Source of the DNA: an uncultured Rivularia sp. | GTDB taxonomy: Bacteria > Cyanobacteriota > Cyanobacteriia > Cyanobacteriales > Nostocaceae | DNA length: 64,000 bases | Reading direction: 5' to 3' | Assembly (NCBI GenBank): GCA_963665115.1 | Contig: OY762007.1 | Span: 1,536,001 to 1,600,000, forward strand | In this document: piece by piece, positions 1 through 46,570 of the stretch | How the letters are laid out: each line of letters begins with the position of its first letter | Position numbering within the stretch: the first letter of the stretch is position 1 | Program-made: the position numbers and the translations under genes | Notes under the pieces: generated by a model | What the model was told of the DNA's origin: nothing | The model's database searches: none | The model's input: only the letters and a program-made list of their open reading frames with translations

Positions 1-1322
1 AACCTTTCGTTTTATGTCTTCTACCGCAACTTCTTGTATATTTTCCGTTTGCTCTAACCGTTTCATCTGGTTCCACTTTTCTAGTACGTACTCTCCAGAA
101 CCTTAGCGTACAATCGTCCGAACCACTTACCACTGATGTAGCGGTACCGTTGATAGCAACTGAATTGACAGACAGAAGATGTTGTGGAGCTGTTTCTCTG
201 GGTAATAAAAATCCGAGTAATGCTGCTAGTAAAGCTAGAATAGCCGCTTGCAACCATAAAGGTAAAATCGGCAAAACTTTTAGTTCTAAAGTTTGAGTAG
301 CTGGGGTCTGTACTACCCAAACGTTGGTCGGATAATTCCGCTCTCGCTTCCAAAAGTAAATTTTTTCTGATACCAATCCAAGGACGTTTTGTGGTAACTT
401 CCAAATTTACTGTAGCTGTTTGTCCTAAATCGGGGTTAGCAATTTCGGGAAACTTTTTATACGTACATTTTCGCCAGTCTTTACCCTGAATTTGTATATC
501 AATTTCTTGACGCAAGTTGCTGGCATTCTTAAATAATAGTTCGTAAACAACCGTTTTAGATTTCCAGTCAGGCAGCCATTTGTTTGTTTGAGGAAGTGTT
601 TTTTGCCGTTGTGGAGTATCAAATTTAATAAAGCCTATGGGTAATACTTCTAAATTAGCTTCGGCACTAGCTGGGTAACTATTATGACTTGTAGCCTTGA
701 CTGTAAAAGGATAAATATCGCTTGGTGCTTGAGCTACAGAAGGAGGCTGACATTGAAAAGAGATGTCTTTGTGATAGCCCGGATTGATTGATAATCGTCT
801 TTGCTCGCTACCTATCAACCAAGAAGAATCGATACCAGCAAAATCTAAAGTTATATTTGCTGGCTGTTGCCCCATATTCCGCAATTTTACTAAAATATCT
901 ACGCTATTACCGGGATAAACCTGATAATCTTTGACGGGAAATTCAACACTGATTAGATTTGGTCTTTTATCTCGCTCTATTTGCAAGCGCAGCAACAACC
1001 TACGCTCTTGTCCTAATTGTGGCGAAAATACTTTGACTGTCAAATTAATCGTACCGACAAATCCCGGAATAGGAGTATTAAAAATAAATACCTGAAAAAT
1101 TGTACTGCTGCCATGAGGTTGAGCAGCAGCCACTTCTGGTTCTAATCTATACCAACGGTAGTCATCGTTCCCCTTTTGTCCCGCTGCTTCAATCTCTAAT
1201 TGAAAATTTGCAAAGCGATCGCTATCGTTATTAACAGTTATTTCAAAAGTGACCGGAGGTTCGTTTGGTCGAAAAACTAAGCTTTGTGTGGAAAGACTAG
1301 CACTAATAACACTATTTCTCAT
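1..1322 (-). CDS. Membrane-anchored protein: N-terminal Ig-like (COG1470/NEW3-like) domains, TM helix, WD40-like repeats; split by a +1 base at 303-306 and running off the window
   Basis: ORF 81..1322. Removing one G at 303-306 continues it as DPATQTLELKVLPILPLWLQAAILALLAALLGFLL (TM), then VNSVAINGTATSVVSGSDDCTLRFW (WD40-like). Confidence 0.7.
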
Positions 1323-1428
1323 GTCGGAGTCATTTAATAGCTATCCACCAAGAATTGATGGTGGAGAATAAAAATTGAAAACATTCACATCCTTTGTCTA
1401 CTATCTATCTACCTACCCATAAGTAAAT

Positions 1429-2907
1429 TTACGAATCTCCCATGTTTTTCAAGTAATGAATGACTGCTTGTGCTGTAGGTAAGTTATTTGCAAGTAAGAT
1501 TTCACGAATATTGCAGGTTCGCAATAGTGCTTCTTCAGAAGCTTGCCCTTGTTGGGGAACGGTTAAATCTCTGATAAAAATTACAGCGATGATTTTTTCT
1601 GAATTTATCAGCGAATTGATTGCTTGATATCCACCAGATGTAGCTGGAGGAATGTCTTCGGTAATGCTCAAACCAGTCTGACGATATATATAATCGTTAT
1701 AAGTTTGCCAGGTTATTGTTTGACAATAGGATAAAAATTCTTCATGTTCGGAAATTAATTCTTTGAGTTCAGACTTTTTAGTATCGTGAGAAATTAATAC
1801 AATTCGTTTTTCTTCTAGAACGGGAGCAATTTTGATAATTAATTCTTCTTCCTGATTGCTTTCTTCTGTTTCCTTTTCTTTTTCTTGAGCAACTTCATCC
1901 TCTTCAGCAGTAACAGGCTCTAATGTTGAGATAGAAGCTTCAGACATTAACTCTTCTTCAACTTCCTCAGTATTTGTCATATCAGAATCTGTATATTCGT
2001 TATTTGTAACTTCTATCATTCCGCTTTCAGCTTCGGTTGTTTCAGTTTCTTCACTCGTCTGAGCAATGTCTTGTTCGTCAGTTTCGGTTTCTTCTTGCTC
2101 GCTTTCTACTTCTGCTTCGGAAGCAATTTCTTGTTCGTTTGAATCAACTTCTTCTTGCTCAACCCTTGCTTGTGGTTCGGTGTCTTCTTCTAGATTTAAA
2201 TCGGAATTATCTTCTTCACTTTCTACTTGAATAGAATCATTGTTATTTTCATGCGAATTTTCATCAAATATATCCCGTGGTTGAACAATAGTATATTCTG
2301 GTTCGGTCGAGCTAATATTTTCTATAGCTTCAACTGGTGTATCTGAAATTTCATTAATTTGATTATTTTGGGGAATTTCTTCGTCAGGTTGAACAAAAGT
2401 TGGTTCTTCGGAATTTCGATTAATTTCCTCAGCGGTTTCAACTGCTTCGCTAACAAAAGATTTGGCAGATTCTTCTGATTGACTATCTAATTGTGCAACT
2501 TCTGCTACTTTATCATTTTGATTTCGCTGCACATGAGAAAACATTGAAGGATTTATGATTCTCACCACCGTCTCTGACTGCTGAGAAAATGATATATCTT
2601 CTTCCAGCATCAAAGCAAAGTCTCCGATGCGGATAATATCGCCATCATTTAAAATGTATGAATGATTTTCTTCTAAAATCTTTCCATTAATGATTGTGCC
2701 ATTTCTGCTACCAAGGTCACAAAAATAGTAATTTCCTGATTGGTAAAAAAACTTACCGTGAAAACGACTTACATCATCGCTATCAAGAATTACATCGGAA
2801 TCAGGAGAACGACCAACTACACATTCATGTCCTCTTCTAGTTGTAGAAGAAAGGTCGATTTCCTCTAATTCATTTTGTGTTGGGGAATTGGATATTTTGA
2901 CTTTCAT
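1429..2907 (-). CDS. FHA domain + acidic linker + degenerate methylglyoxal-synthase-like domain
   Basis: FHA motifs VVGRSPD, VSRFHG, DLGSRNGT. Glu-rich middle. The C-terminus RIVLISHDTKK...IAVIFIRD...ALLRTCN...LANNLPTAQAVI resembles MgsA. Confidence 0.8.
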   Translation of the reverse strand: MKVKISNSPTQNELEEIDLSSTTRRGHECVVGRSPDSDVILDSDDVSRFHGKFFYQSGNYYFCDLGSRNGTIINGKILEENHSYILNDGDIIRIGDFALMLEEDISFSQQSETVVRIINPSMFSHVQRNQNDKVAEVAQLDSQSEESAKSFVSEAVETAEEINRNSEEPTFVQPDEEIPQNNQINEISDTPVEAIENISSTEPEYTIVQPRDIFDENSHENNNDSIQVESEEDNSDLNLEEDTEPQARVEQEEVDSNEQEIASEAEVESEQEETETDEQDIAQTSEETETTEAESGMIEVTNNEYTDSDMTNTEEVEEELMSEASISTLEPVTAEEDEVAQEKEKETEESNQEEELIIKIAPVLEEKRIVLISHDTKKSELKELISEHEEFLSYCQTITWQTYNDYIYRQTGLSITEDIPPATSGGYQAINSLINSEKIIAVIFIRDLTVPQQGQASEEALLRTCNIREILLANNLPTAQAVIHYLKNMGDS

Positions 2908-44705: not shown

Positions 44706-44871
44706 GGGGTTGCTGAATACAGGTATGAATTGATTTTACTATCTAAGTTGCGCCCCCTAAATCCCCTGCCCCCGTGACCCCCAATTTTGAGGGTACTGGG
44801 GGACTTTAAAATACATTTCTCCCCCATAATTGGGGGTTGGGGGGCTATTCATATTGTGAATCAGTAACGCC
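44706..44871. repeat. Dispersed MITE-like repeat, copy 6
   Basis: Same family; a partial seventh core lies at ~46704-46775. Confidence 0.7.
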
Positions 44872-44944
44872 AAAATTTAAATATTTGCATAGCATTTTAA
44901 TTGTAACTACAGTAACTTTATAAAAATAGGACGGCTTATCAAAA

Positions 44945-46570
44945 ATGAATTCGCCACTTTCATCAAACTCTTGGATAGGTCGCTTGATAGGTGATAACCA
45001 AAGATACCGCTTGCTAAAAAGTTTGGGTGGAGGTGGAATGGGGGAAGTTTACCTTGCCAGCGATACTCGTCTTGGCAAGGAAGTAGCATTAAAATTACTT
45101 AAATATAAATGGCTAGCATCTAGTGAGATGCAAAAGCGTTTTGAGCGAGAAATTGCAATTTGTGCTGCTTTGCAAAGCGACCATATTATTGAGATTAGCG
45201 ATTGTGGAGTCAGCGATGAAGGTTTTCCGTTCTACGTGATGGAATATCTCCGGGGACAAACTTTGCGAAATTTAATGCTAAGGGAAAAGCAGCTAACACC
45301 GGAACGAACGGTAAATATTATTAAGCAGGTGTGTAAAGGGTTGCAGCTTGCCCATCAAGGAGTTGTCATGGGACACGATGCTAAAAGCAGCAATGTTATT
45401 AAGGTTATTCATCGCGATTTAAAGCCAGACAATATATTTTTGTTACCTAAAGATTTTGGAGAACGGGTAAAGATTTTAGACTTCGGTATTGCCAAAATTC
45501 ATAAAGAATCCTCCAAACAAACAAATCTCACTAAAACGTTTATCGGTACATTTCGTTATTCTTCACCAGAACAAATTCAAAACGATAAAAATATAGATGG
45601 AAGGTCTGATATTTATACTTTGGGAATCATTCTCTACGAAATGCTAACAGCTTTAGACCCTTTTGGTCTAAGTGTCGATAGAAGTAGAGTTAGTGAAAAT
45701 TCGTGGTTACATGCTCACGGTTATCGCGAACCCATACCGTTTACATCTCGTCGGGGGTGCGAACATTTATCTTCAGAATTAGAAGCTGTAGTTTTAAAAT
45801 GTTTGCAAAAAAAACCCGCACATCGTTTTGATTCGGTAACAAAACTATCTGTAGCTTTAGAAACTGCGCTTCAATCCACCACAGCTAATAAAAATCCACA
45901 AAATAAACAAATCATTGTTAAATCTCAAATAAAACAAACCTCTTCAACTACAAATGATGAAACTGTTTACAAACCCGTACAGGAGCGTCAAGAAACTCAA
46001 CCGATAAAAGGTTCAAACTCCGAAACTGTGTTTAAACCCCAATCCAGAGTCGTTAAACCCCAACCTCAACCATCACAAAATCAGCAACCGTATACAAGCA
46101 AAAATAGGTCAATACAACAATCACCACAATCAGCTCGGTTTGACGAACCCAAATCTGAAGCCGGAATTCCGGATCGTTCGACATCTAATCCACAACCGAA
46201 AACCCCAGAAGGGACTATTTATCAATCGCGCAATTCAGAAGATGCAAACTCCTCAAAACCAGAGGGGACTATGTATCAATCCCGACCCACTAATACTAAT
46301 TCTCAACCGCAACAGTCGATTGATGGAACCATTTATCAATCCCGAAATGGAATTAGTCAAGAACCTCCGCAAAACCTACCCGCACAAACTAGAATGCACT
46401 CTTCACAGCAGGGACAACCGAAACCAGATGGTACAGTTTATCAACCAAGAACAAATCATCATATAGAACCTCAAAAAAACAAATTTAATATTGTTAGAAG
46501 TGTTAGCACTAATCTCAAAAATGTCTGGAAAGCATTCAAAAATTTAATTAGAAGATTGTTTGGAGGATGA
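44945..46570 (+). CDS. Ser/Thr protein kinase with Pro/Gln-rich tail
   Basis: LGGGGMGEVY, VALK, HRDLKPDN, DFGIA; (E/D)GT(I/M/V)YQ repeats in the tail. Confidence 0.92.
   Translation: MNSPLSSNSWIGRLIGDNQRYRLLKSLGGGGMGEVYLASDTRLGKEVALKLLKYKWLASSEMQKRFEREIAICAALQSDHIIEISDCGVSDEGFPFYVMEYLRGQTLRNLMLREKQLTPERTVNIIKQVCKGLQLAHQGVVMGHDAKSSNVIKVIHRDLKPDNIFLLPKDFGERVKILDFGIAKIHKESSKQTNLTKTFIGTFRYSSPEQIQNDKNIDGRSDIYTLGIILYEMLTALDPFGLSVDRSRVSENSWLHAHGYREPIPFTSRRGCEHLSSELEAVVLKCLQKKPAHRFDSVTKLSVALETALQSTTANKNPQNKQIIVKSQIKQTSSTTNDETVYKPVQERQETQPIKGSNSETVFKPQSRVVKPQPQPSQNQQPYTSKNRSIQQSPQSARFDEPKSEAGIPDRSTSNPQPKTPEGTIYQSRNSEDANSSKPEGTMYQSRPTNTNSQPQQSIDGTIYQSRNGISQEPPQNLPAQTRMHSSQQGQPKPDGTVYQPRTNHHIEPQKNKFNIVRSVSTNLKNVWKAFKNLIRRLFGG

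Follow-up and report, generated by a model that had tools for sequence, protein, structure and literature searches.

Candidate membrane receptor and kinase-FHA module at a cyanobacterial contractile injection system locus of lineage IId

What brings a contractile injection system (CIS) to the membrane of a cyanobacterium, and what triggers it? For lineage IId syringes, membrane targeting and the trigger are known only in Streptomyces, via CisA, a bitopic protein needed for firing (PMC12237407). Close CisA homologues have been reported from actinomycetes only, and no experimental work on a cyanobacterial IId system was found in the literature. The question is raised by a 64,000-nucleotide stretch of DNA from an uncultured Rivularia sp., analysed here in full as the window, in which CIS genes lie among kinase and FHA genes. 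A preliminary description had proposed a near-complete CIS of ~46 kb whose assembly or firing is gated by Thr phosphorylation in response to periplasmic ligands. Its inventory was right, in that every structural and signalling gene listed was found in the locus or just outside it (Table 1). The core genes are likewise present, but the locus runs ~3.5 kb beyond the window's left edge, continuing left of base 1 with two Ig-TM genes.

On sequence grounds, this is a CIS of lineage IId, and the only one of the genome, as all three gp19 matches (3/3) fall inside the window. The structural set comprises three gp19-family tube genes, a sheath, two Pvc16 caps, CIS_tube, VgrG_rel, gp25, TIGR02243 baseplate J, TIGR02242 wedge, a Cis13-like gene, an AAA ATPase and DUF4157. 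The sheath scores 417 bits against 8bky, the Streptomyces CIS sheath, versus 186 bits against All3325 of Anabaena, where the C-terminal part alone aligns. The eCIS-like core (Chen 2019) is present throughout: tube, sheath, Afp7, VgrG, gp25, baseplate J, ATPase and Afp16 cap. A sheath tree places cyanobacterial sheaths beside actinobacterial and Deinococcus ones, although it was built without the dbeCIS reference set and with a weak outgroup. In the part of PMC6899500 drawn on here, subtype IId is defined by having one baseplate J and a VgrG gene that is not split; a PAAR gene is usual in it, and most of its loci have no afp13. The locus has one baseplate J and an unsplit VgrG gene. A single query found no PAAR gene in the genome, as is also the case in S. 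coelicolor, whereas 12 related loci do have one.

The Streptomyces CIS with CisA (PMC10066040, PMC10020575, PMC12237407) provides the closest solved sheath and baseplate J, and resembles the locus in its single VgrG, single baseplate J, Sco4256-like Ig-TM genes and LuxR-type regulator near the cluster. Particles of the Streptomyces class lie free in the cytoplasm and, under stress, kill the cell that makes them. Unlike in Streptomyces, no CisA-like gene (Zn ribbon, TM helix, F5/8-type domain) was seen in the locus by Pfam, and behind the wedge genes its place is taken by the Cis13-like-DUF4159 gene, a weak Cis13 match (42 bits against a cut-off of 370). The Roseiflexus/Deinococcus IId CIS (PMC12998442) is of the same lineage in another phylum and is likewise said to lack close cisA homologues; FHA and kinase genes are listed for the Roseiflexus RS-1 locus in a supplementary table of PMC8213781. 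The thylakoid-anchored CIS of Anabaena PCC 7120 (PMC8894136), to which the locus had been compared, shares the cyanobacterial host and the contractile tail core but belongs to a different CIS lineage. Neither feature of the thylakoid-anchored class, an Anabaena-type sheath or a membrane-anchoring tail fibre, was found here. The Cis13-like protein was considered as such a fibre and rejected, since it lacks a TM helix and its fold matches no fibre.

Table 1. Features of the locus and its flank, in window positions unless prefixed
Feature	Position	Strand	Remarks
Ig-Ig-Ig-TM-WD40 membrane protein, N-terminal part	1..1322	-	gene extends left of window; likely Sco4256-type
759-aa Ig-TM-Ig gene	L001:16573-18852		follows the 1..1322 gene; its paralogue (99%)
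FHA, acidic linker with Thr motifs, methylglyoxal-synthase-like domain (FHA-MGS)	1429..2907	-	FHA-pseudo-MGS
Short DUF6760-like ORF	about 2907-3056		after the two small genes
Two small conserved genes	3053..3795	-	likely tail assembly chaperones (annotation of relatives)
Two gp19-family tube genes	4441..5410	-	profile matches
Sheath, lineage IId	5521..7191	-	bit scores and tree
Pvc16-type cap gene	7238..8074	-	C-terminal Ig-like domain
Conserved 18-base box	8138..8155	-	GAC-N4-GTC inverted repeat; ~80 bases upstream of cap-sheath operon
Soluble His kinase and NarL/GerE response regulator	8911..10769	+
Pseudokinase-PBP: Cys4 prefix, pseudokinase, one TM helix, PstS-fold domain	10815..12984	+	split at 11024, probable sequencing error
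Zn ribbon, Pro-rich linker, FHA (Zn-FHA)	12950..13561	+	overlaps pseudokinase stop
CHAT protease-CVNH lectin gene	13795..15391	+	variable insertion
Baseplate operon	15794..29579	+	78-aa ORF, tube, 1599-aa repeat protein (36 x 90 bp), CIS_tube, VgrG, gp25, baseplate J, wedge with N-terminal Ig-like domain, Cis13-like-DUF4159 protein
Cis13-like protein	in baseplate operon	+	folds as DUF4159; no membrane helix in 17/18 homologues
Accessory kinase-TM-MORN and exported repeat/outer-membrane-barrel-like protein	29905..32670	+
Cis15-type AAA ATPase	32688..34688	+
Variable region	35693..43521	.	four putative cargo ORFs with PBP1 kinase among them
Four putative cargo ORFs	35693+, 36707-, 41154-, 42616+ (DUF4157)		common N-terminal leader
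PBP1 kinase	38553-41072	-	in variable region
Second Pvc16-type cap gene	43736..44380	-
Repeat-tail kinase	44945..46570	+	intact Ser/Thr kinase, Thr-repeat tail, no extracellular sensor
Two outside kinases	50435 and 51795

Several reading frames appear broken. Six apparent frameshifts, at sites including 11024 (pseudokinase), 14762 (CHAT-CVNH), 24611 (gp25) and 38592 (PBP1 kinase), are one-base extras in run X1 that two further runs of this organism, X2 and X3, do not show, and are therefore probably sequencing errors. A decaying locus was rejected on the same grounds and because two near relatives keep its whole gene order. The CHAT-CVNH gene is found in only one relative (G389). For the Ig-TM genes, a homologous ORF exists in a Kitasatospora IId locus (95%), and a TM helix is found in 24/24 and 22/22 homologues.

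Whether the signalling genes could lie here by chance was judged against the whole genome (83 kinase and 22 FHA matches). The expected numbers per 46.6 kb are 0.44 kinases and 0.12 FHA proteins, yet the resulting Poisson P values (0.01 and 0.006) are overstated because kinases lie in tandem arrays in this genome; density alone is thus weak evidence, and synteny is the real test. A 2021 survey found Pkinase not to be enriched at eCIS loci (odds ratio 1.24), while FHA enrichment near CIS loci is already in its supplementary table. By synteny with related CIS loci, the claimed network divides. Synteny or co-inheritance with the CIS is seen for the repeat-tail kinase, the pseudokinase-PBP, the two FHA proteins and the His kinase-regulator pair, whereas the PBP1 kinase and the two outside kinases have no orthologue among 55 kinase ORFs of related loci, and the MORN kinase is patchy. 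That all signalling genes are mere passengers is extremely improbable: the two outside kinases are passengers, and the PBP1 kinase probably is one too, but the idea is largely refuted for the dedicated and lineage add-on tiers described below by the strict co-occurrence of the receptor, the co-inheritance of the kinase-FHA trio and the co-translocation of its kinase with CIS genes, as judged from these distributions.

The pseudokinase-PBP receptor forms a dedicated tier among the signalling genes, judging by its occurrence in 24/27 genomes with a IId sheath versus 0/324 without one; two of the three IId genomes lacking it have split sheath matches. Its place within the locus differs between two cyanobacterial clades, yet it remains with the CIS, and in the deeper clade its gene lies inside the tube operon. 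Sequence and structure model indicate a kinase fold in which the catalytic Asp is replaced, by Asn in 68/69 locus sequences and 134/146 family representatives. Residual activity is possible in pseudokinases, as in HER3. The model (pLDDT 85) is recognised as kinase and PstS folds, although the PstS-like domain, despite its fold matches, has only 12-18% identity and scores far under the TIGR02136 cut-off. Two near-invariant cysteines in this domain fit an extracytoplasmic location. The TM helix is found in 133/150 family representatives, the Cys-type prefix in only 42/150.

These features suggest that the receptor likely acts at the membrane both as a sensor and as the place where the syringe docks, and by analogy it may fill the role held by CisA in Streptomyces, likewise a bitopic protein with an outer ligand-type domain. 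A CisA homologue it is not: no homology to CisA-like proteins was detected, and that candidate was rejected on the differing outer folds, F5/8-type in the CisA-like proteins. Alternatively, the receptor could be cargo or a downstream partner, with the phospho-module controlling the cell's aftermath (lysis, development) rather than the particle. In Streptomyces, the name effector is given to the single-pass proteins Sco4256-4258, whose outer domain varies and in whose absence the tube is empty (PMC10066040); the position inside the tube operon in the deeper clade would also suit cargo. However, two Sco4256-like genes and four leader-bearing ORFs are already cargo candidates, and the receptor, unlike the variable cargo, has one copy in most genomes and is conserved along its full length, which makes this alternative distinctly unlikely.

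A second tier consists of the repeat-tail kinase, Zn-FHA and FHA-MGS, whose orthologues occur together in the same 9/62 genomes, with that of the kinase found in one more. Among the nine, eight have a IId sheath, and the ninth has a receptor remnant beside Zn-FHA; seven of those eight belong to one genus, so that the counts are not independent. The trio is missing altogether from 18/26 other IId genomes, and Thr phosphorylation can thus be neither a universal gate nor an ancestral one. From its distribution, the trio is a lineage add-on. Among close loci with room, Zn-FHA lies immediately after the pseudokinase in 35/35 and FHA-MGS is present in 49/54. Phosphothreonine-binding residues are intact in both FHA domains, while FHA-MGS has lost the phosphate-loop and catalytic Asp/His motifs (ATGTTG, GGDQQ and PHEPD of solved methylglyoxal synthases are replaced). 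The kinase ends in a TM helix in 16/21 orthologues, not in the window's copy. It adjoins the second cap gene in 7/10 genomes, even where the block has moved off from the sheath. Zn-FHA was also considered as a carrier of CisA's Zn ribbon, which is not supported (profile comparison 0.4%); the two share a weak common Pfam family (PF13240, 9/33 members, best E 0.008).

The trio is further linked by a shared Thr motif, a T-hydrophobic-hydrophobic-Q-P repeat common to the kinase tail and both FHA proteins. Kinase tails hold 61 copies in 15/21 tails (shuffle mean 0.5), FHA-MGS linkers 64 copies in 33/46 (shuffle mean 1.2) and Zn-FHA 5 copies among 32 proteins (shuffle mean 0.4). Since two proteins of the window served to define the motif, its genome rank (2/9288 ORFs with at least 2 copies) is circular, and orthologues are the only test. 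Structural CIS proteins lack the repeated motif, with at most 1 copy per ORF. No phosphatase gene was found in the window, nor a linked PP2C among the 8 Pfam-scanned of the 28 commonest unassigned neighbour families.

Two known secretion systems offer precedents. T6SS PpkA-Fha (PMC3953482) similarly places a membrane-linked Ser/Thr kinase and FHA proteins beside a contractile machine, but the locus has no TssJLM-type membrane complex or PppA phosphatase families, and here the conserved kinase is sensor-less while the sensor-type domain sits on a dead kinase. The T7SSb EssB/YukC and EssC/YukB FHA system, although a different machine, also encodes a membrane pseudokinase with FHA domains in a secretion locus; unlike YukC, the receptor has a PstS-fold outer domain. 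As in YukC, the dead kinase may be purely structural. No pseudokinase-PBP, FHA pair or Ser/Thr kinase was seen in the two actinobacterial plasmid loci examined.

The T7SS precedent points to another explanation, in which the receptor is a structural membrane hub or anchor with no signalling, like EssB/YukC, and the trio a later add-on tuning cargo loading, ATPase/cap function or turnover instead of gating firing. Supporting this, the receptor is present in many IId genomes without any linked kinase or FHA, the genes that accompany the repeat-tail kinase are the second cap gene and the ATPase, not the receptor, and YukC binds FHA domains without phosphorylation (PMC9600267). Both FHA domains here keep their phosphothreonine-binding residues, unlike those of YukB, and the outer domain retains a ligand-binding fold with conserved residues. 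We consider this explanation fairly unlikely.

The original proposal, that the active MORN and PBP1 receptor kinases sense periplasmic ligands, phosphorylate CIS parts and gate assembly or firing, is very unlikely. The MORN, PBP1 and repeat-tail kinases each have HRD and DFG (the PBP1 glycine loop is degenerate), MORN orthologues occur at CIS loci in 6 genomes, one of them on a plasmid, and 15 other loci have a CHASE2 kinase behind FHA-MGS, so receptor kinases do recur at such loci. However, the MORN sensor was found in 3/70 genomes and 0/44 of a family sample, and the PBP1 kinase in 2/18 same-genus genomes and none of six with the same sheath type, whose assemblies are fragmented; the survey's odds ratio also speaks against it. 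Same-place copies of the PBP1 and outside kinases occur only in two near-identical genomes. By distribution, the MORN kinase is a patchy accessory and the other three are confined to closest kin, making up an accessory-or-passenger tier; the MORN and PBP1 kinases may be optional inputs or passengers. Because the former is patchy and the latter not syntenic, a periplasmic-ligand step cannot rest on active receptor kinases, which are the least conserved: the conserved sensor is dead, and the conserved active kinase is sensor-less.

Transcription may add a further layer of control. His kinase and response regulator are each found in 38/49 close loci with room, and no membrane helix was predicted in the His kinase (0/66 homologues). 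The core of the 18-base box is present in 52/58 non-redundant loci (shuffle maximum 11), making it a candidate regulator or promoter site through which the soluble pair might set sheath-operon transcription. It does not mark every operon: the locus has a single copy, other operons are at or near shuffle level, and what matches ahead of the His kinase is this one box, read on the opposite strand. A sigma-70 promoter scan gave chance level.

Phospho-control of the CIS is therefore best described as plausible, and we infer that it could gate assembly or firing. With a probability of roughly 0.45, a dedicated dead-kinase receptor serves as sensor and docking point, and in this lineage a sensor-less kinase relays via the Thr motif to two FHA adaptors. 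The observed part of this explanation comprises the gene set, co-inheritance, dead catalytic loop, folds, shared motif and intact FHA pockets. The kinase would phosphorylate its own tail repeats as well as those of the two FHA adaptors, which are predicted to read the phosphorylated motif. A scaffold that depends on this phosphorylation may then form at the membrane and license recruitment or contraction. By analogy with Streptomyces, firing would likely direct Ig-TM cargo against the membrane of the producing cell itself. A stronger version, tentative and on the doubtful side, holds that cyanobacterial IId CISs are fired by a split receptor kinase (a dead kinase with the sensor, an active one without) while phospho-threonine repeats assemble FHA adaptors, one possibly oligomerised by the dead methylglyoxal-synthase fold, which bring the syringe to the membrane. 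If true, this would represent post-translational phospho-gating of a non-T6SS CIS, of which no description was found in the literature, and a non-homologous replacement of CisA.

The locus thus provides named candidates for lineage IId: a receptor family tied to this CIS, a kinase and two readers, together with defined threonines and a single DNA box. As these genes are also present in named Nostoc and Calothrix strains in culture, the control of CIS-linked cell death in filamentous cyanobacteria is directly testable.

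The preliminary description reported a near-complete contractile injection system (CIS), and searching the ORFs of the window against Pfam and NCBIfam bears this out: the gene set is complete and forms two divergent operons; an ATPase and a second cap gene are also present, as is a variable region. The genome, of 8.69 Mb, has no other CIS. The locus reaches ~3.5 kb beyond the window's left edge, where two Ig-TM genes lie, and the entire gene order of the region is conserved in two same-genus genomes. Each of six apparent frameshifts comes down to one extra base that also occurs in sequencing run X1; they are probably sequencing errors, since they are missing from runs X2 and X3 of the same organism, whose listed long contigs, compared at contig level and within one study, are otherwise letter-for-letter equal to the window.

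The sheath matches PDB 8bky/9gtp, which we take to be the Streptomyces CIS, over its full length (417 bits), as against 186 bits to Anabaena All3325 over the C-terminal part alone; for baseplate J, the score to 9gtp is 389 bits. Plasmid matches agree, full-length sheath matches outside cyanobacteria being mostly from Streptomyces, Kitasatospora and Deinococcus. A tree was built from 92 of the 116 sheath sequences, those left after short and near-duplicate rows had been removed; in it, one cyanobacterial group (support 0.92) stands beside actinobacterial and Deinococcus sheaths, with Rivularia and Plectonema as the closest named records. These sequence comparisons assign the locus to subtype IId, which is on record in cyanobacteria (PMC6899500, PMC10020575). 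By the same scores it is not the Anabaena-type thylakoid system described in PMC8894136, whose sheath belongs to another lineage.

The signalling gene dedicated to this type of CIS encodes a pseudokinase-PBP receptor. In a set of 351 genomes from the phylum, an IId-type sheath (E < 1e-150) was found in 27, this one included, and only other sheath types in 16. The receptor occurs in 24 genomes, all within those 27, and in 0 of the 324 others, a count based on three scored candidates per genome, with many negatives from distant lineages and kin that are not independent. Its family comprises 280 clusters at 50% identity (E up to 1e-30); ten were looked up, and the three with a named organism were all cyanobacterial. 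The catalytic loop reads HGN where HRD is expected, with Asn in 68/69 locus sequences and 134/146 family representatives, while the DFG Asp is retained in 129/146 representatives and the ATP-binding Lys in 103/143. The predicted structure of an intact orthologue (pLDDT 85) combines a kinase fold with one long helix and a fold like that of PstS. The modelled outer domain shares 12-18% identity with PstS-fold structures; 'PstS' here refers to the fold and does not prove a ligand. One relative (G389) has a second receptor copy of a deeper-clade type, ~55 kb from the main sheath (L233, ~1.8 kb in) and near a second partial sheath match.

Kinase and FHA density at the locus is modest evidence only, because the genome holds 83 kinase and 22 FHA matches. 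Linkage was instead followed through 80 sheath-centred loci (66 with sheath identity of at least 72%, 14 more distant), further stretches of relatives' genomes and genome-wide searches. Within the 66, FHA-MGS is present in 49/54 loci with room, the receptor and Zn-FHA each in 36/49, and the His kinase and regulator each in 38/49; Zn-FHA lies immediately behind the receptor in all 35 loci with room. Neither FHA gene nor the repeat-tail kinase was seen in the 14 loci that are more distant. A comparison of whole genomes covered 62 chosen ones, of which 26 have IId and 36 do not. Orthologues of these three genes occur in the same nine of them, leaving out seven weaker FHA-MGS-search matches (E 1e-13 to 1e-16) as ordinary MGS-like genes; a tenth genome has only the kinase, and all three genes are missing from 18 of the 26 IId genomes. 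Eight of the nine carry the IId sheath. The ninth (G147) lacks it, and a receptor remnant there adjoins Zn-FHA; its gene content marks a decayed CIS locus, with orphan Zn-FHA, FHA-MGS and kinase on L208, L215 and L216. Another relative (G173; L116, L117, L202) carries one IId locus and, besides it, another that lacks the sheath. In 7/10 genomes the repeat-tail kinase and the second cap gene stand back to back, even where this block is far from the sheath.

The remaining kinases fared differently. When 55 kinase ORFs from related loci were compared with this genome, the repeat-tail kinase was the best match for 21, the MORN kinase for seven (from six genomes), and the PBP1 kinase and the two outside kinases for none; a CHASE2 kinase missing from the window's locus accounts for 15. 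The MORN sensor was found in 3/70 genomes, and the PBP1 kinase in 2/30 relatives, both near-identical across the entire region. Of the signalling genes in the network initially proposed, the receptor, Zn-FHA, FHA-MGS, two-component pair and repeat-tail kinase are syntenic or co-inherited with related CIS loci; the PBP1 and outside kinases are not, apart from copies in two near-identical genomes. In many Nostoc and Calothrix loci (L003 and 14 others) a CHASE2-kinase gene lies behind FHA-MGS, a position that makes one more accessory slot for a receptor kinase.

The repeat-tail kinase has intact catalytic residues, no outer domain and a terminal TM helix in 16/21 orthologues. Both FHA domains retain the Gly-Arg, Ser-x-x-His and Asn-Gly residues that bind phosphothreonine; in the MGS-like domain the catalytic motifs are no longer present. 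A T-hydrophobic-hydrophobic-Q-P motif is repeated, far above shuffles, in the kinase tail and FHA-MGS linker, with a weaker copy in Zn-FHA; as it was defined on the window's proteins, orthologue counts alone test it. The structural CIS proteins do not carry the repeat (one copy per ORF at most).

In Streptomyces, firing requires bitopic CisA, a proposed sensor and membrane adaptor (PMC12237407). Since Pfam and profile comparison revealed no CisA-like gene at the locus, and since among its dedicated membrane proteins the pseudokinase-PBP alone bears a domain of ligand type, we infer that this receptor would fill the role of CisA, and that one clade added the kinase and two FHA readers onto it. 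PpkA-Fha of the T6SS offers an analogue for such kinase and FHA control (PMC3953482). YukC of the T7SS is another and binds FHA domains without phosphorylation (PMC9600267), which favours the main rival reading, a structural membrane hub with no signalling role.

With regard to transcription, no TM helix was found in 66 His kinase homologues. Some 80 bases upstream of the cap-sheath operon, 52/58 loci share an 18-base box whose core is GAC-N4-GTC (one copy in the window's locus), a candidate NarL-type regulator site or alternative promoter. As for cargo, the two Ig-TM proteins are mutually paralogous, and an ORF in a Kitasatospora IId locus is homologous to them; they fit the description of Sco4256, to whose type they probably belong, and of which homologues have been seen in cyanobacterial IId loci (PMC10020575) and called effectors (PMC10066040). 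Four ORFs of the variable region, alone in the genome, share a 50-residue N-terminal leader, likely a loading signal, with 29 matches in 10 related loci; one of these putative cargo ORFs seems to be broken close to its end.

Coordinates of the locus features and neighbouring genes (window positions unless a stretch is named)
Feature	Position	Strand	Remark
FHA-MGS	1429-2907	-	
His kinase and NarL/GerE regulator	8911-10769	+	
Pseudokinase-PBP receptor	10815-12984	+	
Zn-FHA	12950-13561	+	
1599-aa protein	16593-21392		36 copies of a 90-base repeat, Ser/Thr-Pro-rich; possible tape-measure-like or cargo protein; slot held by large DUF4157 protein in Kitasatospora locus
MORN kinase	29905		
HicB-HicA pair	34782-35523		behind ATPase; then duplicated copy of its last ~75 codons, as after insertion; duplicated end also in genome G385
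Variable region	35693-43521		
PBP1 kinase	38553		
Repeat-tail kinase	44945-46570	+	
Nitric oxide synthase oxygenase domain, adjoining MFS transporter	46887-49827		transporter NarK-type; synthase next to CIS in two closest genomes only
Outside kinases	50435; 51795		
Polysaccharide export and glycosyltransferase genes, transposase remnants, CHAT-CHASE2 gene	54055-63879		no relation to CIS
Dispersed short intergenic repeats	near 3800-4400, 8600-8750, 13600, 15450-15600, 24700-24950		recur elsewhere in genome, raise read depth
Left neighbourhood: CHAT-CHASE2, DUF1822, sigma-70-like gene	L001:1-16302		also haemagglutinin-like repeat proteins, TPR-CHAT-like and DUF928-like genes; similar genes beside some related CIS loci
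CHASE2-kinase gene behind FHA-MGS	L003:15391-17601		

That a GerE-type regulator, in some cases together with a His kinase, adjoins eCIS loci is in print (PMC8213781). The main text of that paper is silent on FHA. In the supplementary rows covered, FHA is enriched at eCIS loci (odds ratio 5.6), whereas neither Pkinase nor PBP_like_2 reaches significance; the MGS-like and PBP-like genes have single rows in cyanobacteria, and the Roseiflexus locus is entered with kinase and FHA genes. By these rows, the parts were tabulated earlier and not interpreted there. Open full text yielded no report of a CIS-linked pseudokinase or of phospho-control of a non-T6SS CIS; the supplements of PMC6899500, which cover subtype-specific genes, and of PMC12998442 may list the genes. 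In summary, there is strong genomic support for a genuine regulatory variant at this locus, one that is new within a known CIS subtype.
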